From positions 1 through 11,491 of the forward strand of contig JBDRLB010000021.1 of the NCBI GenBank assembly GCA_043813365.1: a DNA stretch of 11,491 nt. Reading direction: 5' to 3'. Below, piece by piece: positions 511-11,491 of the stretch (its first letter is position 1; each line of letters begins with the position of its first letter). Origin of the DNA: Candidatus Micrarchaeota archaeon (GTDB taxonomy: Archaea; Micrarchaeota; Micrarchaeia; Norongarragalinales; SBBD01). The position numbers were made by a program, and so were the translations under genes. Below the pieces are notes generated by a model. That model saw nothing but the letters and a program-made list of their open reading frames with translations, did no database searches and was not told the DNA's origin.

Positions 511-1554
511 TCAGCCCACAATCCCCTTGAATGATTGCAGCAGGATCTCGTGCGCGACGAAGAAGATGGCGTTGCCAATGCCAACGAAAATCGGCATGAA
601 CTTGATCCCTCTCGCAGCCTTTCCGTGGCGGATGAGCCCGATGAGGATGGAGGAGAAGAATGCCGTTATGGATATGGCGGAAACGGAGAATAATTTGATG
701 TCCTCGCCGGTGATCGTTTCGGCTGTTTTCTGCCTGAATGCAAGGCTTCCAAGCGGCCCGCCCGAGGAGGCTGCATTCGAGCCCTTCATCATTTTCGGGT
801 CCAGCCCCGCCGTCTGCTGGTCGGCGATTTTTGTGCTTGTTTCGGAATAATAAAGCGAGAGCGCAAACAGCAAGGGCGCGACGAAGACCGAAGCGAAAAT
901 AATGAAAATGACGTAGGTGAGGGTGGCATTGGAAATCTCCTTCCTCAACGCCTTGGTGCTCTTCACGGTTGCGGCGACCTCATCAAGCAGGTTTGCAACC
1001 TCCCCGCCTAAACGGATGCCATCAACAAGAAGCTTGACGGACCTTTCAAGCAATTTCGAATCGACCCTCTGGGTCATTTCAAGAAGCGCATCGTTGATGG
1101 GTTTGCCGGCATAAGTGCTGACGCTGACTTTCTTGATTTCTATTCCCAGGACGCCGTATTCGGGCTTTGAGACGGTCCAGATCGCATTCTCAACCGTAAG
1201 CCCCGCCCGGATGTTTGCGGCAATGATCTTGAGCACTTCCGGGAGGATTTCCTCCACCTTGCGCGCGCGGCTTTCCGCAGTGAAATAAAGGGAGAAGTAG
1301 AAAGTGGCGCTTGCCATTATGAGGAACGCCAATGCCGCCCCTATTGAAAGGATGGGCGAGAATGGGAAGAACTGGTGCACCACCACTCCCACGACAATGC
1401 TGGAGATGAGCGCAAAAAGCACCATGAAGCCCGCGTATTTCCGGGGATCGAGGTTGCTGAAGCCCGCCTGCACGATGAGCCGGCCTATCGTATCCAGCAG
1501 GAAGCCGGGCATCATCTGCGAAAGCATGAACAGCAATTTCGAACCTTTTGCCAT
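511..1554 (-). CDS. Type II secretion system F family (TadC-like) pilus membrane platform protein
   Basis: 347 aa. Two N-terminal TM helices, a cytoplasmic T2SSF segment (RARKVEEILPEVLKIIAANIRAGLTVENAI...YGVLGIEIKKV...LLERSVKLLVDGIRLGGEVANLLDEVA) and three C-terminal TM helices. In an operon with a pilus ATPase. Confidence 0.9.
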   Translation of the reverse strand: MAKGSKLLFMLSQMMPGFLLDTIGRLIVQAGFSNLDPRKYAGFMVLFALISSIVVGVVVHQFFPFSPILSIGAALAFLIMASATFYFSLYFTAESRARKVEEILPEVLKIIAANIRAGLTVENAIWTVSKPEYGVLGIEIKKVSVSTYAGKPINDALLEMTQRVDSKLLERSVKLLVDGIRLGGEVANLLDEVAATVKSTKALRKEISNATLTYVIFIIFASVFVAPLLFALSLYYSETSTKIADQQTAGLDPKMMKGSNAASSGGPLGSLAFRQKTAETITGEDIKLFSVSAISITAFFSSILIGLIRHGKAARGIKFMPIFVGIGNAIFFVAHEILLQSFKGIVG

Positions 1555-1563
1555 TAAATCATC

Positions 1564-2445
1564 TCAAATATCCTCTATTGCGGGCCTTCTGCTCCTCACG
1601 AAATCCGTGAAGAACAGCTGGAACCCGGTTATGAAAACCAAAACAACTGCGAAAATTATCTTCGGCACATCAACGCCGAGGAATGAAATTATGACGAGCA
1701 TCATGGTGATTCCAAGGGAAGGGGTCACAATGGCCGCGAGCATGTAGATCATCGTCCATGGGGAAAGCTCCTGGCCGTACCTGCGGATGTCATCAATCTT
1801 CTCTGCAACGAGATCGGTGATGATTTCCTCAAGCGCCTTGCCCACATCGGTGCCGACCTTGAGCGCATTGTCTATCTGCCATAAAATCCGCCTGAATTGG
1901 AGGGAGGAGGTGAAGCGGCTCTTTTCCTCAAGAACGTCCTGCATCGGGATTCCCGCATTGATCCTGCGGACCATCTTGCGGAATTCGAGGGAAACCTCGC
2001 CGTAGCCATCGCAAACGCCGGTCATCGCCTCGTAGAGCGGGACCCCGGACTTCACCTGGATGAGCATCTGCCTCATGGCAGGCACGAGCTCGTTCTCCAG
2101 CTTGCGTGCGCGCTTCTTCGCAATGATCTTCGGGTAGGTCATTATGGTAAAGAAGGAAACAAGGCCGATCAAAATGGGCGCAACTACGATGAAAATCGCA
2201 GTGTTTTCATTTGTCATGCGCGCGACTATGAAGCCAAGGACGAGGATGAAAAGCGCATTGAAGAATGAGGCCACTACGCCCATGGTCGCGTATGTGCGGG
2301 GGTTGATGGTGCTTTCCGTCTGCAGCAGCTCCTGGTGGAGGGAAGGGAAAAAGGTGGACACGACGTTGCCCGTACGCTCGAAAACCTTGACCTTTGCAAG
2401 CTTCTCCACCAGCGGAGGCGGCAGAAGCGAAAACGGCACCTTCAT
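1564..2445 (-). CDS. Type II secretion system F family (TadB/TadC-like) pilus membrane platform protein
   Basis: T2SSF segment KRARKLENELVPAMRQMLIQVKSGVPLYEAM...YGEVSLEFRKMVRRINAGIP...FRRILWQIDNALKVGTDVGKAL, flanked by TM pairs. Start is ATG 2445 or TTG 2451, abutting the ATPase stop at 2452. Confidence 0.9.
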   Translation of the reverse strand: MKVPFSLLPPPLVEKLAKVKVFERTGNVVSTFFPSLHQELLQTESTINPRTYATMGVVASFFNALFILVLGFIVARMTNENTAIFIVVAPILIGLVSFFTIMTYPKIIAKKRARKLENELVPAMRQMLIQVKSGVPLYEAMTGVCDGYGEVSLEFRKMVRRINAGIPMQDVLEEKSRFTSSLQFRRILWQIDNALKVGTDVGKALEEIITDLVAEKIDDIRRYGQELSPWTMIYMLAAIVTPSLGITMMLVIISFLGVDVPKIIFAVVLVFITGFQLFFTDFVRSRRPAIEDI

Positions 2446-2451
2446 CTTCAA

Positions 2452-4110
2452 TCACTTGAGCTTCTTCCCGAAAATTGCCTTCAGTTTCTTCCTCACGTCC
2501 TCGCGGGGCCCTTCATTGAGCGCCTTGCGCACTTCCGCAACCTTCTCCTGCTTCTTCTCGGAGGGCGCCCTGACTTCCTTCTTTTCCACGATATCCGAGT
2601 GGGACGATTCCATGTTAAGAAGGTCGTCGGGGGAAGAATTCGAGTTTACGGCACGCATCACGCGCTCCTTGTCGAGGTAATACCATGCGATCATGCGGCC
2701 GACGTTGTTGACGGAGCTTATTCCCTTCTTGCACATGTATGCGAGGACCTTCGCGCGCGCGTCGAGCTCGGCGTTGATTTCCTTTGCCTTCATGCCCGTA
2801 TAGAGGCCGAGGGTGGTGTAAAGCCGGATGGATTCGCCGACCTTCTCCACCTGGTCGATCGAGGGATTCCACCGGTAAATTACGTTGATGTTCGTCTTGT
2901 TTTCCTCTTCGATGAATTCCGCAATTTCGAAAGTCCTGCGGATTCCGCTGCGCCTTTGCCTATATTGGATGACGACGAGATTCAGCGCCGACAGGGTTAG
3001 CTCCGGAATGCTGACCGGCGGATTAACAAGCCTGCTCTTGAGCTGGAAAACGTCTTCCGCATGGAAGGTGCTGTAAACTGCGTGCCCAGTATGCATGGCC
3101 TCGAACATCGTTTCGGCCTCACGCTGCCGCCTGACCTCCCCCACAATTATGCGGTCGGGCCGCATCCTCAGGGAGTTTACCATCAGGTCGAGCATCGTGA
3201 TTTCGCCCTTCCCTTCCGAGTTCGGCTGCCTAGTCACCATCGGCGTCCAATGCACGAAGGAAGGCAGCACCAGCTCGCGCGTGTCCTCTATTGAAACGAT
3301 ACGCTGGTTGGTGGGGGTGAAAAGCATGATTGAATTGAGGAAGGAGGTTTTGCCGCTTCCGGTGCCCCCTCCTACAAGGATGTTCATTTCATACTGCACG
3401 CAAAGCCAAAGGAGGGCCGCAACTTCGGGGGTGAGCGTATTGTTTGAGGGATCGATGAGGTGCACGATGGTCCAGGGATCCGCACGGAATTTCCTGATGA
3501 CAATGCTGTTCCCCTTCGAGGCGATGGGCGAGAGGACGGAGTTCACACGGCTTCCCGAGAGCAGGTTGGCGTCAAGCAGCGGCGTGAGCGTCGTTATCTG
3601 CCTCCCGATTTTCCTAGCGATGATCTCGGAATAATTCTGGATCTGCGATTCCGTCGGGATGATAAGGTTCGATTTCAGCCAGCCGAACTTGCGGTGGTAG
3701 ACCCAAAGCGGCTCCTTGGAGGAATTTACGATGATTTCCTCAAGCATCGCATCCGCAAGCAGGAGCTCCAGGTCGCCGAGGCCGAGCATCTCCTGTATCA
3801 GCTTCCCCAGCAGGAATTCCTCCTCATCCGGGCTGGAGTCCGGGAATTCCTTCTTGATGAACTCCCGCGCCTTTTCGGTGAATTTTTTCCTAACGACTAC
3901 GTCATCCCCCTGCGTGACAAGGTCGGAAATCTTCAGGTCGACTTTCTCGATGATTTTTTCCTTCAGCTTGTTGAGCACTGCGCGGGTTGCCTCGTTAAGC
4001 TGCAGGTATTCGAGCTCGTAGGTATTGATGTATTCGTTCTCCCGCTGGACGATCTTCACGTCGGCAACCACTTTCTCGTTCTCGACCTTATATGTTCCTA
4101 GAATTTTCAT
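2452..4110 (-). CDS. Type II/IV secretion system (CpaF/TadA/VirB11 family) pilus assembly ATPase
   Basis: Walker A GGTGSGKT (3346-3369), Asp box SIEDTRE, LRMRPDRIIVGEVR (Walker B region), His box MHTGHAVYSTFHA. ATG 4110 preferred over TTG 4119 because an SD-like GGGGTTGA lies just upstream. Confidence 0.96.
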   Translation of the reverse strand: MKILGTYKVENEKVVADVKIVQRENEYINTYELEYLQLNEATRAVLNKLKEKIIEKVDLKISDLVTQGDDVVVRKKFTEKAREFIKKEFPDSSPDEEEFLLGKLIQEMLGLGDLELLLADAMLEEIIVNSSKEPLWVYHRKFGWLKSNLIIPTESQIQNYSEIIARKIGRQITTLTPLLDANLLSGSRVNSVLSPIASKGNSIVIRKFRADPWTIVHLIDPSNNTLTPEVAALLWLCVQYEMNILVGGGTGSGKTSFLNSIMLFTPTNQRIVSIEDTRELVLPSFVHWTPMVTRQPNSEGKGEITMLDLMVNSLRMRPDRIIVGEVRRQREAETMFEAMHTGHAVYSTFHAEDVFQLKSRLVNPPVSIPELTLSALNLVVIQYRQRRSGIRRTFEIAEFIEEENKTNINVIYRWNPSIDQVEKVGESIRLYTTLGLYTGMKAKEINAELDARAKVLAYMCKKGISSVNNVGRMIAWYYLDKERVMRAVNSNSSPDDLLNMESSHSDIVEKKEVRAPSEKKQEKVAEVRKALNEGPREDVRKKLKAIFGKKLK

Positions 4111-4122
4111 AGAGATCAACCC

Positions 4123-4779
4123 CTATTGCATGCCCGCCTTCCCAGGCACCTCAATTGCATCCTTTTTCTCGGGCTTCCTGCGCCGGAACGCATTCTTGAT
4201 TCTTGAAAATACTTTTGCGAACGGAAGCTTGAACCCGCCCTTCCTGCCCTGCTGCGCTTCCAGATGTGAGATGAAAGAATCCACCTCCGTCCGCACTTCC
4301 AGCGCCGCTTTTTCGAGCGCATCGATTTTTTCCTCGAAAACCCTGATTGACGAATCAAGGTCGGCCGCTTTCGCCCTCATGCTTTCAATGTTCTCCTGCG
4401 AAAGGTCGCCCTTCTCGATCTCCCGGAAATGCGCCTTTGCGTTCTCGACCTTCCTGCGGACATCCTTCTCCGAAAAAATGAACATGTTCTCCGCCTCAAG
4501 CAGCTCCCGCTTCACGCCCTCGAGCCTCTCCGCTGCGGTAAGCTTCCTTTCCGCCTTGCCCTTCCCGTCGTCATCCTTGCGCACCATTTTGGGGAACAGG
4601 CGGATGCCGGAAAACTCGTACCTCACGTCAATAAGGCCGCTTTCCGCAAGGATTTCCGATAGCTCCTCCACCTGCTTCACGGGCATCCCAAGCGACTTCG
4701 CGGCATCGTCCACCGTGCAGCTCTTCCTGAGCTTGACGTATTCAACTAGCCTATCAATAGAGGTGTCTAGCTTCGCCAT
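4123..4779 (-). CDS. Uncharacterised protein: N-terminal winged helix-turn-helix, central coiled coil, basic amphipathic segment near the C-terminus; first gene of the pilus assembly operon
   Basis: 218 aa. IDRLVEYVKLRKSCTVDDAAKSLGMPVKQVEELSEILAESGLIDVRY fits a wHTH pattern. E/K-rich heptads from about aa 80 to 175. Stop is 12 nt before the ATPase ATG. Confidence 0.8.
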   Translation of the reverse strand: MAKLDTSIDRLVEYVKLRKSCTVDDAAKSLGMPVKQVEELSEILAESGLIDVRYEFSGIRLFPKMVRKDDDGKGKAERKLTAAERLEGVKRELLEAENMFIFSEKDVRRKVENAKAHFREIEKGDLSQENIESMRAKAADLDSSIRVFEEKIDALEKAALEVRTEVDSFISHLEAQQGRKGGFKLPFAKVFSRIKNAFRRRKPEKKDAIEVPGKAGMQ

Positions 4780-4824: not shown

Positions 4825-4907
4825 TATTGCGGTTTTTCCTTAATCGGGATGGTAATTTATATTTCGCGGCGTTGTTTTGCCGCAATATCAGGTTTTTTCC
4901 ATCTGCA

Positions 4908-4924
4908 AGAATACCATTAAATAT
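4908..4924 (+). promoter_or_regulatory. Putative archaeal BRE/TATA promoter of the KaiC-like gene
   Basis: AGAATACCA-TTAAATAT, with the TATA-like box at 4917-4924 about 28 nt before ATG 4952. Spacing fits a near-leaderless transcript. Confidence 0.5.
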
Positions 4925-4951
4925 GGCACGGCAGTACTAAATCCGGTTAAG

Positions 4952-5512
4952 ATGGACAATGTGAGCGAGACGCTTAGGGAGAACCTCAAGGGCCTGCCGG
5001 AAAACTACGTCGTGATGGTCGTGAGCGACTCCAACACCTACCTTGAAACGAACCTCGCAATATTGAAGGGCCTGATTGCGGAGGGGAATACGATCATTTT
5101 CGTCACGATGATTCGGCCCGCAGCGGTTCTCGCACAGCTGTTCGACCTGAACTCCATCGACAAATCCAAAGTTTACATCGTGGATTGCGTCTCCACGCTG
5201 ACGCAGCAATATATCAAGCACACGGAGCACGAGGTTTACGTGCAGCCGAACAACCTCTCCGCAATAGCAATGGCCGTCAACGAGATGGCACTCTCGCTCG
5301 AGGGGAAGAAAATCGTGATTTTCGATTCGCCCTCCACGTTGATGGTTTACAACAGCCTCAACGAGATAATGAAATTCGCGCTGTTCATCACGAGCAAAAT
5401 ACGGCTCGAGAACTTGAAAGGCATTTTGCTCTCCGTGCAGGAGGACATGAGTTCGGAAATCCTCAACGGCCTCAGGCATGTGAGCGATAAAGTGATCAAC
5501 CTGAACAAATAG
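4952..5512 (+). CDS. Inactivated KaiC/RecA-superfamily ATPase-like domain protein (DUF835-like)
   Basis: 186 aa from ATG 4952. RecA-fold strand order: VVMVVS, IIFVTMIRP, VYIVDCVS, Walker B-like KIVIFDSPSTLMVYN, GILLSV, LRHVSDKVINL. The P-loop position reads VSDSNTY, with no GxxxxGK[ST]. Confidence 0.8.
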   Translation: MDNVSETLRENLKGLPENYVVMVVSDSNTYLETNLAILKGLIAEGNTIIFVTMIRPAAVLAQLFDLNSIDKSKVYIVDCVSTLTQQYIKHTEHEVYVQPNNLSAIAMAVNEMALSLEGKKIVIFDSPSTLMVYNSLNEIMKFALFITSKIRLENLKGILLSVQEDMSSEILNGLRHVSDKVINLNK

Positions 5513-5521
5513 GTGTTATGC

Positions 5522-5917
5522 ATGGCATCGGTATTTCTCATCATATTGGAAGCGGCTTTTTTCGTCATAAGCATATTCGCGACCGCAATCGCGATCTTCC
5601 TTTTAAGGAGGGCGCGCGATGCGCTAAGCGATGATCTCCTCAAGCGCGCGATAACGTGGATGATATATTCCAGCTTCACGCTTGCGATGATCAGCCTGCT
5701 TGTCGGCTTCAACTTCCTGGTCGCCATCAACTCGGATTTTGCAGGCATGCTTGAACAATACCAGTATGTTACGCTGACGAACATCGCAATCTGGGTATCC
5801 ATAGCGTGCAACATCATGATCGCGCTGCTCGTGAGCCAGGTGGGGAAGGCTTTTGGCTTCAAGGACTCGGGAAGCCGCGAACTTTTCTTCGAGAAATACC
5901 TGAAAATGAAAAAATAA
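5522..5917 (+). CDS. Small hypothetical membrane protein with three predicted TM helices
   Basis: Three hydrophobic stretches (SVFLIILEAAFFVISIFATAIAIFLL; AITWMIYSSFTLAMISLLVGFNFLVAI; VTLTNIAIWVSIACNIMIALLV) and a basic tail. SD-like AGGTG at 5511-5515 favours ATG 5522 over GTG 5513. Confidence 0.8.
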   Translation: MASVFLIILEAAFFVISIFATAIAIFLLRRARDALSDDLLKRAITWMIYSSFTLAMISLLVGFNFLVAINSDFAGMLEQYQYVTLTNIAIWVSIACNIMIALLVSQVGKAFGFKDSGSRELFFEKYLKMKK

Positions 5918-6003: not shown

Positions 6004-6417
6004 ATGCTCTCCGCAAGAAAGGCACAGGCAGCGATGGAGTACATGATAATGCTCGGCTTTGCGCTCGCGATCATACTCCCGCTATGGCTGTATGTGAATG
6101 CATCACTGAGCAATACCAACCAGGATCTGGATGCGACTTATGCAAGGAGTGCCGTGAACAAGGTCAGGGATGCAGCGGATTCCGTTTTCGTCCAGGGCCC
6201 GCCGGCGCAGATGTACCTCGAGGTCGAAATGCCACATTCGGTGCTGTCGACGTCGGTTTCGGGAAAGGAAGTCATGATAGTATTGGATGCGCCGGGAGGC
6301 AACAGCGAAGTGTATGCAGTCACGCTGGCAAACGTGTCTGGGGCGCTGCCCGCTCGGCAGGGAAGGGTAAGGATATTGGTGAAGGCCGAAACAAATTTCG
6401 TTAACATCACGGAGTAA
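6004..6417 (+). CDS. Class III signal peptide-containing pilin-like protein (pilin 1)
   Basis: 137 aa from ATG 6004: MLSARKA|QAAMEYMIMLGFALAIILPLWLYV, i.e. basic residues, predicted cleavage after Ala, Q+1, E+5, hydrophobic helix, then a helix and beta-rich head. Confidence 0.88.
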   Translation: MLSARKAQAAMEYMIMLGFALAIILPLWLYVNASLSNTNQDLDATYARSAVNKVRDAADSVFVQGPPAQMYLEVEMPHSVLSTSVSGKEVMIVLDAPGGNSEVYAVTLANVSGALPARQGRVRILVKAETNFVNITE

Positions 6418-6423
6418 CAGGCG

Positions 6424-6837
6424 ATGAATTTGGCGATGAAGCATATGCGTGGCCAATCGGGGATAGAACTGGCCACATATTTCGGCTTCCTGATCATCAT
6501 TTTCATGATTTTCAGCGTTGAGGCCGCGTATAGGATGGGGGTAGCGCAGAGGAGCCGCGACAGCCTCGAGGCGGAGAGGGTCGGCGGCACTGCGGCAACG
6601 CACATCAATATAGCGCATTCTGTTGGGAACGGCTATTCGGCCGTCTTTTACCTCCCCGAATCGCTCAGCAACTCATATTACAACATATCGGTCTACACGT
6701 CGATTTTGCGCCTTGAAATCTGGTATTCTTCGGGGTTTGCTAAGAGCTTTCCGCTTCTGACGGGAAATGTCACGGGTGTGCCCGTGCCGGGGAAGAACCT
6801 CATAAAAAACGTAGATGGTGAGATAATAATTGAATAA
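6424..6837 (+). CDS. Class III signal peptide-containing pilin-like protein (pilin 2)
   Basis: MNLAMKHMRG|QSGIELATYFGFLIIIFMIFSV: Q+1, E+5, hydrophobic helix. Layout parallels pilin 1 (AHSVGNGYSAVFYLP vs SVFVQGPPAQMYLEVEMP; LTGNVTG vs LANVSG). True start could be a later Met. Confidence 0.88.
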   Translation: MNLAMKHMRGQSGIELATYFGFLIIIFMIFSVEAAYRMGVAQRSRDSLEAERVGGTAATHINIAHSVGNGYSAVFYLPESLSNSYYNISVYTSILRLEIWYSSGFAKSFPLLTGNVTGVPVPGKNLIKNVDGEIIIE

Positions 6838-7345
6838 GGGGCTGTTTTCAGGGGATTTCGTCGTTGGTTTGGCGATTTTCCTGGTAATATTGCTGATCGT
6901 TAGCCCGATGTGGTCGAGCGTTACGACGCAGGTGGAGAATTCGGAAGCGGAACGGCGGCTCCAGATCGCGGGGATAGAAGTTTCCGAAACCCTCCTGCGG
7001 ACAAAAGGGTTCCCGGAGGATTGGAACTCCACGAGCGTGATCAGCATCGGGCTTGCCGGTGAAACGCGCGTGCTCAACGCCACCAAGGCGAAATATTTCT
7101 TCCAGTTCATGGAGAGCAATTATACGGATGCAAAATTCATGCTGGGAGCCGGCGCATATGACATGCGGGTGGAGATCGCCAACAATACGGGTTTGCCCGT
7201 GATCTTCGAGGGAGTGGAATTCACACGCGATCCGGTGCCGGCAAATTCGTATGACGTCACGAACACGGAAAGACTGGCAGTGCTGGAATTCAACGAATCA
7301 TATGCTGAATTTGTCAGCCTGCAGGTAAGCGTTTGGAGGAGTTGA
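6830..7345 (+). CDS. Class III signal peptide-containing pilin-like protein (pilin 3)
   Basis: TTG start overlapping the previous stop, SD-like GGTGA at 6817-6821. MNKG|LFSGDFVVGLAIFLVILLIV, then SETLLRTKGFPEDWN...IGLA, ending in VSLQVSVWRS. Confidence 0.85.
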   Translation: MNKGLFSGDFVVGLAIFLVILLIVSPMWSSVTTQVENSEAERRLQIAGIEVSETLLRTKGFPEDWNSTSVISIGLAGETRVLNATKAKYFFQFMESNYTDAKFMLGAGAYDMRVEIANNTGLPVIFEGVEFTRDPVPANSYDVTNTERLAVLEFNESYAEFVSLQVSVWRS

Positions 7346-7346
7346 G

Positions 7347-10300
7347 ATGATGATGGCCGAAAATCGCGGAAAGAGGGGAATTGCGTTCACGCTGGACGCC
7401 GTGATGGCGCTGCTGATAGTGATCGCACTGGTGCCGGTATTCCTGCTGCTTACTGCAAGAAGCCCCACGCAAACCGCAAGCACCGAGCACCTGCATCTGC
7501 TTGCGGAGGATGCGGTTGATTCGCTCTCGAAAATGCAGATACGGCAGGTGCGTTCTGATCCCGTAGTTGCGGATTTTTTCAATCGGACTCCACCGGCGCT
7601 TACTGACGAAGACCTCGATTCGAGCGTCCTGGACATACTGGGGGGGTTATGGGCTTCGCAGGATCCCACCAGTCTTGCAGATGCGGCGAACCTCACAAAA
7701 AGCCTGCTCGGCGGGCTCATACCATCAGGGCTGAAATGGCAATTCTCTATTGTGGACATATCCGGGCAGGTCGATGTAATTTATAATACAACGGAACTCT
7801 CAAATTCGTCAGACCTCATAACAGCAAGCAGGAAGGCGGCATCCGGCTTTGCGCGCAACCAAAGCTCAACTGGCTATGTTGCTAAGGCATTCCTTGAGAA
7901 CATCATCGGGAAGGAGGACAACAGCTATTTCTTCTTCGGGGGCTTCGTGGGGGAGGGCAACCTTACTGCGACCATATCCGATATCCCCGTCAATTCCACC
8001 ATCTCAAAAATTTACCTCGAGGTGAACGGCGAAAGCAATTTCTCGATGTACCTCAACGGCCAGCATTGCAGGGACATGGTCGTCAGCGGGGGGAATTTCA
8101 CAGTTGACAATTGGACGATAATGTCGAACGAGACGTGCATTTCGTATTTCTCTGCGGGAGAAATGAACAACTTCACATTCATATTCTCGCACCAGAACAT
8201 CACGAAGCATTATTTCGGCGGCGGTTACCTGAGGGTGACGTTCACAACCGACGAGCTCATACCTGCCTCGAAAGGGTACTTGAGGTATTACTTCCCGGGA
8301 ATAGACGGGCTGGTGAACCTGTATGATTCATTCTATGTGCCGGGCAACATCACATCGATGAATGCAAAAATTTCCGTGTATTCCTACCATAATTATTCAA
8401 CCCTGATGTGGATTGGGAATACCACGATTGTCAACCATACGGGCAGCAACCTTACGGAGGAAATATTGATTAACAATGCCAATTTCACCGCGTTGTTTGC
8501 AGCGAACAACATAACATATTTCGACCTGAGCGAGACAACGAACCCCCTGAGGATGCTGATCGGCGCCAACATCACCGGAGGGAAAATAAACGGGACTGTT
8601 GATGTAGTGCTGATAACAGATGTTTCAGGAAGCATGGCGTGGAGGATGGACTCGGATTCCACAACGGGTGTTACGGACGTTTCCAACTGTGACGATCCCA
8701 ACCTTTATCTGCCAACAAATAGGAGGATAAACGTGGCGAGGTGCCTCGACAAGCTTTTCGTGAATGCGATACTGGGAGGGAATGCGTCCGCATGCGGCGA
8801 GGGGACGCCATTGGTGGGGAACCGGGTTGCGCTCGTGAATTTCAGCACGAGCCTTACGCATAATACGAGCCTGCAGAACGGCGGCACCGCTAACCTCACG
8901 TACCTAATAAACATGATCAACGGATATGTCAGTACATCAAGCACCTGTCTTGCTTGCGCGATCAACCGTGCGTATGAAATATTGCTCACCCAAAGCTCGC
9001 CCGAAAGGCAGAAGTACATCATTGTGATGACCGACGGTCAGGCGAATTACCATGCGACTGGTGTGAACGACAACCTGAATGGCATCGCTTCAAGCAATGA
9101 CGGCGGATATAGCAGCATCCTGGTGCAGGATAGGGGTTATGTGGGAAGGAGGACGAACCAATTCTGGGAATATGGAGGCGACATTTCCGGGAACAACCTC
9201 AATGCGATTTCAATGCTCAACTCCACGTTCGGATTCACGGTCTCAAGCAACGGCGAAATATATTTTTGGGACGGTGCCTCATGGAGCCTGATGAACGCAA
9301 CTGGTTTGGGTGCGATTTATGCAGTTGATGTATTGAACGGCACATTCGCGCTGGCCGGAGGGACCAGCGGAAGGATTCACAGGTTCGACGGCACAAACTG
9401 GGGGCTGATGCAGGACACTGGTTCGCAGAATTGGTATGCCATAACGATTTCAAACGGAAGCTGGGCGATGGCAGGCACAGCCGGCGGGGTAATTTACAGG
9501 TATGCTGGCTCCACATGGGCGAGTTATTCAACCCTTTCGGGAGGGGATGACATTTTCTCCATGGATTCGTACAATTCAACATATGCGATTGCAGGCACGG
9601 ATTCGGAGAATGTCCACCGCTGGACCGGAAGCGCAACCTGGACGGAGATAGCGGATCTTGGAAGCAGTGACATCCGGGGGATTTCATTCGTCAATTCCTC
9701 ACTTGCGTATGGCGCGAGCTCTTCAGGCGAAATAAGCCAATGGACTTTCACAACCGGATCGAACGTTTACACGCAACCGGGAGGGAGGCAGCTGAACGGA
9801 ATAGTGATCCTGAACAGCACAGAGGGTTATGCCGTGGGCGATTACGGGAGGGTCCTGGTTTGGGACGGGAATGCCTGGAATCTTACTGCAAAGCTTTCAC
9901 GCGGGTTTGAAGGCAACCTCACTACTGGCTTGGACGGGAATGACGACGATCTCAATTGCGGAACATTTATGAGCCAGTCATATGCATCCATGAATGCCAA
10001 TTATTCAACAGCAAGGATAACGTGGAACCTGGTGAACTACACCGTTGATTCAGTAGGATTCGGACCAATCGGGACGTGCATGCAGGCAAACGAAACCTTG
10101 GATGCAGTTGCAACAACCGGAAACGGCACCTTCTATGCAAGCAGCAACTCCTCCGAATTGCAGTCGATCTACTGCCAGATTGCAAGGAACATCAATACGA
10201 AGGCGACTGCAACGCAGGAAGTCACGTTCAGCGGCAACCTCACGCGCGCAACACTCTACCCCGATTCCTACATCGAGATATATTATTGGCCGGCAACCCC

Positions 10301-11060
10301 CGATCCATCATACAAGGAAATTTCCGTAACAACGGAGACGGACACGTTCCCGAACTGCTCCGGCACATTCTTAATTGCCTATGCAAATGATTCGCGCATA
10401 ATTGATTCAAAGCTGACATCATATTCTAGTAATTACTGGACCAATGCGGGCTTCGTGAATTCAAGCGCAACAAACGGCTATAGCCTCATATTCAACCTCA
10501 CCAATTACAACCTCCCCTATGGCATGCTCGGCGATCCGTTCCATCTTTACTTGCCAATAAACCTACTGAAGGCACATGAGACTAATAATGTCATCGACCA
10601 ATTGGGGTTGAATGAGACCTACAATTCTCCGAACTGCTCAAAATACAACCGCGTGATTTACACCGCCAGGCTGCGCGCTTCAACAAGCTATTCCTCCATA
10701 TTTCCATATGCGGTCGGCAAGAATGTGACAGTGTATTACGATTCGAATGGAGATGGCATTGCCGATGGATTCTCCTACATAGCATTTGGTTCAAGTTTGC
10801 CTGGATTCGATCCGACTCCAGTTACGGTCGGAAGCCTGAGTCTTTGCAGCAATCCGTATGGCGATGCGATTGATTGCGCAATATTGACGCTCCTTTCACA
10901 ACTCAATTACTTACAGGACGGGGGCACTGGACTAGCCGGCGAATCAACAAATCCGATAGACATAATCATAGGAGGCGACGTCGGCGCAACAACTGAAACG
11001 TTGAGTTTGGTGCCCATACCTTGGGGGCCATCGGAGATGACGGTATCGGTTTGGGTATAA
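7347..11060 (+). CDS. Giant pilin-like adhesin: class III signal peptide, vWA domain with MIDAS motif, inserted beta-propeller repeats, heavily sequon-rich
   Basis: 1237 aa. RGKRG|IAFTLDAVMALLIVIALVPVFLLL. vWA motifs DVVLITDVSGSM (D at 8619), STSSTCLACAI, YIIVMTDG (D at 9033), TVDSVGFG...LDAVATTGNGTFY...ELQSIYCQIA (10041-10184). SD GGAGGAG just before the start. Confidence 0.92.
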   Translation: MMMAENRGKRGIAFTLDAVMALLIVIALVPVFLLLTARSPTQTASTEHLHLLAEDAVDSLSKMQIRQVRSDPVVADFFNRTPPALTDEDLDSSVLDILGGLWASQDPTSLADAANLTKSLLGGLIPSGLKWQFSIVDISGQVDVIYNTTELSNSSDLITASRKAASGFARNQSSTGYVAKAFLENIIGKEDNSYFFFGGFVGEGNLTATISDIPVNSTISKIYLEVNGESNFSMYLNGQHCRDMVVSGGNFTVDNWTIMSNETCISYFSAGEMNNFTFIFSHQNITKHYFGGGYLRVTFTTDELIPASKGYLRYYFPGIDGLVNLYDSFYVPGNITSMNAKISVYSYHNYSTLMWIGNTTIVNHTGSNLTEEILINNANFTALFAANNITYFDLSETTNPLRMLIGANITGGKINGTVDVVLITDVSGSMAWRMDSDSTTGVTDVSNCDDPNLYLPTNRRINVARCLDKLFVNAILGGNASACGEGTPLVGNRVALVNFSTSLTHNTSLQNGGTANLTYLINMINGYVSTSSTCLACAINRAYEILLTQSSPERQKYIIVMTDGQANYHATGVNDNLNGIASSNDGGYSSILVQDRGYVGRRTNQFWEYGGDISGNNLNAISMLNSTFGFTVSSNGEIYFWDGASWSLMNATGLGAIYAVDVLNGTFALAGGTSGRIHRFDGTNWGLMQDTGSQNWYAITISNGSWAMAGTAGGVIYRYAGSTWASYSTLSGGDDIFSMDSYNSTYAIAGTDSENVHRWTGSATWTEIADLGSSDIRGISFVNSSLAYGASSSGEISQWTFTTGSNVYTQPGGRQLNGIVILNSTEGYAVGDYGRVLVWDGNAWNLTAKLSRGFEGNLTTGLDGNDDDLNCGTFMSQSYASMNANYSTARITWNLVNYTVDSVGFGPIGTCMQANETLDAVATTGNGTFYASSNSSELQSIYCQIARNINTKATATQEVTFSGNLTRATLYPDSYIEIYYWPATPDPSYKEISVTTETDTFPNCSGTFLIAYANDSRIIDSKLTSYSSNYWTNAGFVNSSATNGYSLIFNLTNYNLPYGMLGDPFHLYLPINLLKAHETNNVIDQLGLNETYNSPNCSKYNRVIYTARLRASTSYSSIFPYAVGKNVTVYYDSNGDGIADGFSYIAFGSSLPGFDPTPVTVGSLSLCSNPYGDAIDCAILTLLSQLNYLQDGGTGLAGESTNPIDIIIGGDVGATTETLSLVPIPWGPSEMTVSVWV
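9066..9887 (+). repeat. Seven ~39-41 aa protein-level repeats (predicted beta-propeller blades) inside the adhesin
   Basis: Blade ends GYVGRRTNQFW, GEIYFWDGASW, GRIHRFDGTNW, GVIYRYAGSTW, ENVHRWTGSATW, GEISQWTFTTG, GRVLVWDGNAW. A conserved Asn recurs at 9096, 9219, 9336, 9453, 9573, 9693, 9813 (spacing 117-123 nt). Confidence 0.85.
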
Positions 11061-11095
11061 AAAAGCGGAACAAACGGGCAAGGAAAAATAATGTG

Positions 11096-11239
11096 ATGAA
11101 AAAAGTTGAGAATATGAAAACAGGCAAGAGAAGAGGCATCGTATATTCCCTGATAACCATGCTCCTGGTTCTGCCTCTGCTCATCTACCTCAGTGTCCTT
11201 CCGTGCAGTGGCAGTCAGATCCAGCCGTCTCTCCTGTAA
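11096..11239 (+). pseudogene. Truncated class III signal peptide pilin-like gene (pilin 5)
   Basis: MKKVENMKTGKRRG|IVYSLITMLLVLPLLIYLSVL is a complete prepilin-type N-terminus (start 11096 or 11114), but only PCSGSQIQPSLL follows before a stop. Neither alternative + frame gives a pilin-like continuation; both stop by 11289. Confidence 0.6.
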
Positions 11240-11353
11240 CTCCAGGTAGTTCCGGCATTCTTCGCAAATCCAAAGGCGAGGACGGCTAGAGAATGTCTGG
11301 CCGTCCCAGGACTCCCAACAGGGCAGGCACGCTGCTGGAATCGGCGGGATCAT
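11200..11353 (-). CDS. Possible small zinc-binding (CxxC...CxxC) protein, 3' end lost at the junction
   Basis: MIPPIPAACLPCWESWDGQTFSSRPRLWICEECRNYLELQERRLDLTATAR. Beyond about 11200 the frame simply continues antisense to the pilin genes until 10907. Confidence 0.35.
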
Positions 11354-11371
11354 TGTCCTGGCGATCTGCGA

Positions 11372-11491
11372 TCATGGTGCACTGACCGCCCGTATCCGGT
11401 TCTCGAGTTTCTGAATGTGCGCTCGCAAGAGAATCTCTCGGGCCTTCCAGCAATTCGCGGATTCGGCAAGGTACTGCTTGATCTGCTGGGC
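11372..11491 (-). CDS. C-terminal fragment of an unidentified protein entering from the right edge
   Basis: Open from the window end: AQQIKQYLAESANCWKAREILLRAHIQKLENRIRAVSAP, stop TGA at 11374-11372. Reads like an amphipathic helix. No family recognised. Confidence 0.4.
   Translation of the reverse strand, partial: AQQIKQYLAESANCWKAREILLRAHIQKLENRIRAVSAP

Follow-up and report, generated by a model that had tools for sequence, protein, structure and literature searches.

Several surface proteins that combine a von Willebrand factor A (vWA) domain with inserted modules have been described. PilY1 is presented as a non-pilin protein with a constant C-terminal carrier propeller, and the same source presents PilB of Streptococcus sanguinis as a vWA pilin with a full MIDAS and inserted arms beside it, modelled at the pilus tip (10.1101/2021.01.27.428410). 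In the adhesins RrgA, GBS104 and Mfa5, the vWA domain is reported to be set between two segments of a beta-sandwich, with an inserted arm of 98–123 residues (ARM2) that follows the fourth strand and lies beside the MIDAS; ARM2 of Mfa5 seems to mimic part of alphaV (PMC7835359). CpaL of Caulobacter crescentus, a TadG-type protein of Tad pili, is described as having a vWA domain split by a beta-rich insert (PMC12607857).

We compared these systems with a large modular pilin-like protein (P0001; 1237 aa, 48 N-x-S/T sequons) encoded at 7347–11060 on the plus strand of the window, an 11,491-nt stretch of DNA that is the entire contig C21 of a 1.34 Mb genome. Its nearest named relatives, labelled Ca. 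Micrarchaeota, are 60–62% identical, which points to a DPANN origin. The N-terminus (7347–7460, +) carries a basic leader ending in KRG and a hydrophobic pilin-type helix of class III-like appearance. The helix matched that of the neighbouring DUF7287 pilin in a profile comparison with a probability of 94.5% over 53 columns, all of them in the helix. The acidic residue lies at +6, not +5, leaving no +5 Glu, and Pfam Class_IIIsignal does not match at this N-terminus. A chimeric ORF was rejected as an artefact because the same build recurs in 56 other members of the family. Identical short pieces of the contig were found in four sequencing runs from three studies (one possibly the source), with no variants; none of these pieces bridged the vWA–propeller junction, and no RNA run was present among the listed runs holding the DNA.

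The initial annotation read the gene as a vWA domain split by an insert, and all motifs of this reading lie in the single ORF at the positions it had assigned: DVSGS (8619–8633), Thr533 (8943–8945) and VMTDG (9024–9038) before the insert, and TVDSVGFG (10041–10064), LDAVATTGNGTFY (10098–10136) and ELQSIYCQIA (10155–10184) after it. The first half (beta1–beta4; 8595–9050, +) matches Pfam VWA (E 1.7e-8) and, aligned with 4rck, an uninterrupted vWA domain, provides the MIDAS residues D425, S427, S429, T533 and D563. The second half (helix, beta5, helix, beta6 and last helix; 9981–10202, +), delimited by AlphaFold, the 4rck alignment and covariation, opens with a helix at residue 879 (nt 9981) and ends near residue 952 (nt 10202). 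The remaining vWA elements are therefore present as proposed, but they begin earlier than TVDSVGFG, where they had been placed. Similarly, the insert does follow directly downstream of the MIDAS Asp, but the first propeller strand comes 14 residues after Asp563 rather than about 10. Residues 19–135 of 4rck fall on profile positions 398–529 and residues 146–215 on positions 825–880, so that a gap of 10 residues in 4rck corresponds to a separation of 296 positions between the two profile stretches. In short relatives, the Pfam VWA match runs continuously to position 172 of 174. Among the top 100 N-to-C covarying pairs, 37 join the two vWA halves, compared with 6.2 expected and 5 in shuffled data; this coupling comes mainly from propeller-free rows (40 vs 6.0 expected), with 12 vs 5.9 in the 57 propeller rows. 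The two-part alignment, the continuous match and the covariation together confirm that the residues past 10040 complete the vWA fold.

The AlphaFold blades (residues 577–847) lie between the two vWA halves, which bears out the proposed nesting, and the slot is the loop after the last metal-binding Asp, the ARM2 position, placing the insert on the MIDAS face as the annotation had expected. An acidic, Cys-bearing return linker (9888–9980, +) is, together with residues 564–576, what remains of the ARM2-like loop, rich in Cys, that short relatives have here. About 100 residues of Mfa5 fall at the same profile gap, and the propeller slot is the known ARM2 insertion loop. The protein thus resembles RrgA, GBS104 and Mfa5, as described, in having an insert between beta4 and the next helix beside the MIDAS; it differs in that those adhesins belong to sortase or type V pili and ARM2 is a small subdomain, whereas here the insert is a propeller in a type IV operon. 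CpaL shares the vWA split by a beta-rich insert, but its insert is described as two beta-barrels (204–383) between DxTxS and Thr, away from the MIDAS, and not after the last Asp as here (PMC12607857). No Pfam or NCBIfam model for a Tad-type N-terminal domain matched, CpaL itself being compared from its description. The family profile matches the PilB structure (PDB 7b7p, E 2.9e-6), and one feature of PilB-type pilins, an extra non-pilin module with a complete MIDAS, is present in our protein. Both have a vWA with a full MIDAS flanked by inserted arms, as far as PilB has been described, and the N-terminus of our protein resembles that of a pilin; in PilB, however, the vWA is appended to the pilin and the arms are small, whereas our protein has its vWA nested within a scaffold and, as the arm, an exchanged propeller of 270 residues.

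The scaffold has an N-side (7461–8594, +) made up of a helical/alpha-beta head and beta-sandwich halves, assigned from AlphaFold secondary structure and without a Pfam family, and a C-side (10203–11057, +) whose first strand covaries with the strand region before the vWA in a ladder of pairs (K341–Y975, S343–D973 and Y345–Y971). In two complete members that have no vWA (P0141 and P0226), the two scaffold sides are joined directly. This arrangement and the ladder show that the vWA is itself an insert in the scaffold. Pairing in the middle scaffold was modestly enriched (17 covarying pairs vs 8.9 expected and 10 shuffled). Completion of the pilin head by the last strand at the C-terminus was not supported, as adding it gave a profile match no better than the control and 8 covarying pairs were found where 7.9 were expected.

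The propeller (9075–9887, +) is YCF48-like and runs from strand A of blade 1 to strand D of blade 7, as delimited by AlphaFold, Foldseek and VIA-align. With an 82-row alignment, AlphaFold modelled residues 40–1237 with a mean pLDDT of 89.7 and a pTM of 0.55, the latter meaning that the model does not fix domain orientation. The model contains 28 strands in seven four-stranded blades, residues 577–847. VIA-align against seven-bladed propellers gave Z scores of 31–33 with an rmsd of about 2.2 over 260–281 aligned residues (model 535–804), and the top Foldseek matches were YCF48 (E 2e-12); fold searches with the 1198-aa model returned only propellers. Closure, which the annotation had left to structure prediction and Foldseek, is supported by these results, and the seven blades are predicted to close into a ring. 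The single-sequence prediction, without alignment, gave a pLDDT of 32 for residues 414–958. Scores over all blade pairs averaged 37.7 against a shuffled maximum of 17.2, but blade 1 scored 7–23 against the other six, indistinguishable from shuffles (mean 13.6). Because blade 1 is degenerate, the sequence itself shows six clear repeats, and the evidence for a seventh comes from the model. The annotated count of seven repeats of about 40 residues at 9066–9887 therefore holds for the modelled blades, but the first strand starts at 9075 and one repeat is degenerate. Neither the isolated propeller nor the isolated second vWA half has a Pfam match. PF14870 (PSII_BNR) matched on relatives, which together with the top Foldseek matches links the propeller to the YCF48 type; it is unlike YCF48 in lacking a Pfam match of its own, in its identity of 15–18% and in having no photosystem context.

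The protein is encoded within a run of pilin genes on the plus strand. Upstream lie two small class III pilins, one at 6004–6417 (annotated from 5806, but likely to start at 6004; sub-threshold match to Pfam Class_IIIsignal, E 0.01; in 58 of 79 loci) and one at 6424–6837 (sequence RG/QSGIE; homologues in 59 of 79), then a DUF7287 pilin-like protein at 6830–7345 (Pfam E 4e-6; in 62 of 79, directly upstream of the big pilin in most). A fifth pilin-like gene follows at 11095–11491 (+), of which only the start is present, the frame being lost near the contig end. There, tblastn gave no match, and the remainder of the relatives' sequence matches C9 13328–12744, so that this end of the contig is likely to be of poor quality. 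These 79 loci are the best of 270 relatives and come from 33 of the 64 parts of the collection. On the opposite strand (511–4779, −), a pilus motor operon identified by Pfam comprises an HTH/coiled-coil gene, a T2SSE ATPase and two T2SSF platform genes; the ATPase was found in 42 loci and the platform genes in 40 and 37, many loci being short. The unnamed HTH and coiled-coil gene (4123–4779) was present in 42 of 79 loci, mostly adjoining the ATPase. Between the motor and pilin operons (4877–5917) are a DUF835/DUF7090-like gene (10 of 79 loci) and a small membrane protein (2 of 79). The genome also encodes AglB/STT3, three A24 peptidases and 18 class III signal-peptide motif matches, among them further large proteins of 1100, 821 and 630 aa at C13 7554–10853 and C44 10840–15387. 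Type IV filament machinery is thus encoded alongside the gene, in the operon and in the genome, and the gene content of archaeal T4F system 1 (Epd-like), namely an ATPase, two platform genes and several pilins as that system is defined in PMC13705601, is present. In some relatives the upstream DUF7287 pilin, too, is enlarged by inserts (L005, L007, L013 and L014, about 380–420 aa; L071, 4028–7174); such pilins reach about 1050 aa, and the two that were scanned had no Pfam match.

A search of 1.84 billion representatives with the N-side scaffold gave 506 clusters at E 0.001 and 459 at 1e-10. No Pfam or NCBIfam model matches the scaffold, the ESM Atlas matches were unnamed archaeal clusters only, and a targeted search for short forms returned five fragments. 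The protein belongs to a large unnamed DPANN family. From 186 sequences, 17 near-duplicates or fragments were removed to leave 169, of which the 157 that covered 70% or more of the core columns were kept. Inserts were scored at site A (after the MIDAS Asp), site B (between the Thr helix and beta4) and site C (before Thr). Sixty-seven members are insert-free, 56 have a propeller at site A, 30 an insert at site B, one an insert at both A and B, and three at site C; a propeller is present in 57 of the 157 and absent in 100. The distance from Asp to GFG is 322–373 residues with the propeller (519 and 771 in two members) and 34–149 without. All five MIDAS residues are retained in 57 of 57 propeller members and in 59 of 67 insert-free ones.

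Other contents of site A include a doubled propeller (L072) and a propeller with GH115_C inside (P0021), while P0142, P0156 and P0130 have segments there that carry no Pfam names, two of which we read as jelly-roll-like and one as a repeat of another kind. In short forms this site is a loop rich in Cys, and Cys residues occur on both sides of the propeller in 52 of 57 members, our protein lacking the first one. Among the domains found at sites B and C are GH115_C, CARDB, Laminin_G_3, GH2 sugar-binding, Reelin and DUF2341; PMC4858521 refers to vWA proteins in a regulatory role and to DUF2341 proteins in adhesion. The slot after TDG is therefore empty or filled by different modules in relatives, as the annotation had asked, and the many members without a propeller indicate that it is dispensable for the core job of the family. 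Within the genus, the propeller form was found in five of six genomes, one of which also has a propeller-free, MIDAS-dead paralogue; the sixth showed only that paralogue. Eight such degenerate-MIDAS, propeller-free members form one clade, and they stand in tandem before the propeller form in L001 (5289–8075), L109 (G003) and L097 (G005). Five loci (L052, L017, L019, L072 and L079) have two or three tandem big pilins with differing inserts, and the vWA of P0174, which has a large insert before the Thr loop, matches VWA_4 and Integrin_beta. Seven loci labelled as bacteria or Methanosarcinales (L009, L037, L036, L042, L054, L059 and L065) fall inside DPANN clades and are possibly mislabelled or misbinned. 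P0100 and P0104, in which the pilin motif is of the bacterial N-methyl kind, carry the same propeller type, with up to 18 motif-picked blades, mostly without the A–B-loop sequon discussed below.

These data do not support the analogy with PilY1 as the annotation words it. Both have a vWA and a propeller at a type IV pilus and vary in a modular way, but PilY1/PilC, as described, is not a pilin and has its constant propeller at the C-terminus, whereas here the propeller is an internal, variable passenger behind a pilin-type N-terminus; closer parallels are PilB, CpaL and the tip adhesins that carry ARM2. Membership of PilY1/PilC was rejected on the KRG leader, the DUF7287-like helix and the propeller, which occupies residues 577–847 of 1237 and is absent in 100 of 157 members. 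A literature search on archaeal propeller-in-vWA pilins, in which subscription papers were thinly covered, found no paper, and neither vWA nor propeller occurs in the main text of PMC13705601. The design principle and the insertion loop are known; for the propeller passenger and its cross-lineage exchange, we found no paper.

The annotation also took the propeller for a variable cassette, and its absence, replacement and exchange in relatives agree with this. On the flank tree (FastTree, 157 rows), which is unrooted and does not distinguish gain from loss, propeller presence changes eight times, five of them forced by starred branches, and site B changes 16 times. With three oversized propellers set aside, the pairwise identities of the N- and C-scaffold in the other 54 of 57 correlate at 0.89 and those of propeller and scaffold at 0.43. 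The comparison of propeller and flank phylogenies that had been suggested revealed conflict in three of four AU tests, each at p<1e-10. A 12-row clade rich in Pace- and Woesearchaeota, with 100% support on the scaffold tree, was rejected on the propeller tree (p-AU 1e-13), and two propeller-tree groups were rejected on scaffold columns (AU p 3e-73 and 4e-11); for the L005+L018 clade on the propeller tree the test was not significant (p 0.156). In sliding windows, the closest partner of the mosaics P0028, P0037 and P0035 changes at the vWA halves or within them, from which we infer recombination in these conserved flanks. The tree conflict suggests that the cassette was exchanged, and the propeller has probably moved between lineages. 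Propeller trees can be distorted by the alignment of repeats and by homogenisation, which reaches 60% from blade to blade. Our gene groups with its five nearest relatives in a single clade whichever tree is used, indicating no recent swap here; their identity is 47–59% in the propeller and 62–70% in the scaffold. Mean identity over the family is 0.35 for the propeller and 0.37–0.38 for the scaffold, the propeller being just 10–15 points lower among close pairs. As the two means are close, we rejected a hypervariable propeller.

The distribution of sequons on the propeller is one-sided. The A–B loop carries a sequon in 186 of 228 motif-picked blades (about 82%). The share among 2975 scaffold windows is 36%, and 9 of 87 blades carry one across nine other propeller proteins; a tenth such protein, archaeal, has it in 4 of 4. 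B–C and D–A columns hold 0–8 sequons each. In our protein, the A–B-loop sequon is present in blades 2–7, and two further sequons (N650 and N845) lie at strand D ends. Since the propeller starts with strand A and ends with strand D, both vWA links leave from the D–A side, which is by convention the top of a propeller and its usual ligand face. The one-sidedness suggests that the vWA-joined face is kept free of glycans; judging from the sequon pattern, this face may either bind a ligand or pack on the vWA.

Taken together, we favour with reasonable confidence a modular minor type IV pilin that caps the tip, binds a ligand of a host or surface through its MIDAS and the top face of its propeller, and has heads exchanged by recombination; we infer the tip location, the ligand and the propeller–MIDAS geometry. 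Prepilin peptidase would cleave after KRG, and the N-terminal helix would be built into the filament together with the minor pilins encoded next to it. Ligand binding at the Mg/Mn site would be through an acidic side chain, and the propeller, as an oversized ARM2, would widen or gate MIDAS binding through its sequon-free top face while N-glycans would shield its other face. Homologous recombination in the conserved vWA halves would be the likely route by which the propeller, alone or with the vWA, moves between scaffolds, giving new binding heads with pilus assembly unchanged. In the integrin headpiece, the top face of a seven-bladed propeller likewise adjoins a vWA MIDAS; this is resemblance only, as integrins have two chains, FG-GAP blades and an alpha I domain attached by its base, whereas here the link is a loop on the MIDAS face. 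That the protein is a single-chain counterpart of this headpiece, with the glycan-free propeller top and the vWA metal site forming one binding cleft on DPANN pili, and with this head traded by recombination between DPANN phyla as a host-range cassette, the propeller module being shared with pilins of ultrasmall bacteria, seems doubtful to us.

The protein could instead be a priming or mechanosensing subunit like CpaL or PilY1, which mainly initiates pilus assembly and signals surface contact via its vWA, its propeller serving as a lid, spacer or glycan shield that does not choose ligands. Passengers vary from member to member on a conserved scaffold and in a conserved operon, one propeller face is rich in sequons, deletion of cpaL is reported to lower piliation and alter surface sensing (PMC12607857), and ARM2 of Mfa5 would block collagen-type binding at the MIDAS (PMC7835359). 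We nevertheless consider such a role unlikely, as complete members without a vWA exist and repeated gain, exchange and lectin-like replacement (GH115_C, Laminin_G_3, GH2 sugar-binding and DUF2341) fit selection for binding better than a spacer. The two roles are not exclusive. More improbable is a membrane-anchored surface adhesin, processed like a pilin, bindosome-like and never in a filament. Archaeal binding proteins with class III signal peptides are described (PMC13705601), and the missing +5 Glu, the missing Pfam class III match and the large size would suit such an adhesin, but the gene has a fixed place in a pilin gene run beside the motor operon and its helix is homologous to that of the DUF7287 pilin. 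Large K-type tip pilins also lack Glu5. Pili are common virus receptors, and cross-lineage exchange and heavy glycan marking would be compatible with an exposed head that viruses use as a receptor or proteases attack, and that is swapped for escape rather than for a change of host; the nearest relatives are, however, without hypervariability and the MIDAS is invariant, and we regard this decoy function as very improbable.

How DPANN archaea recognise their hosts is stated to be unknown (PMC11329633), and in Saccharibacteria a type IV pilus is reported to contribute to host binding (PMC12206443). On the tip-capping pilin reading, each pilus operon would offer one conserved gene whose heads (empty loop, propeller or lectin-like) are separable and expressible, along with pairs that nature has swapped and a metal site that does not vary, which would make host recognition testable with recombinant domains and with no need to grow the symbiont. 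The vWA would act as a recombination hub for whole-domain exchange, and the ARM2 design would extend to archaea.
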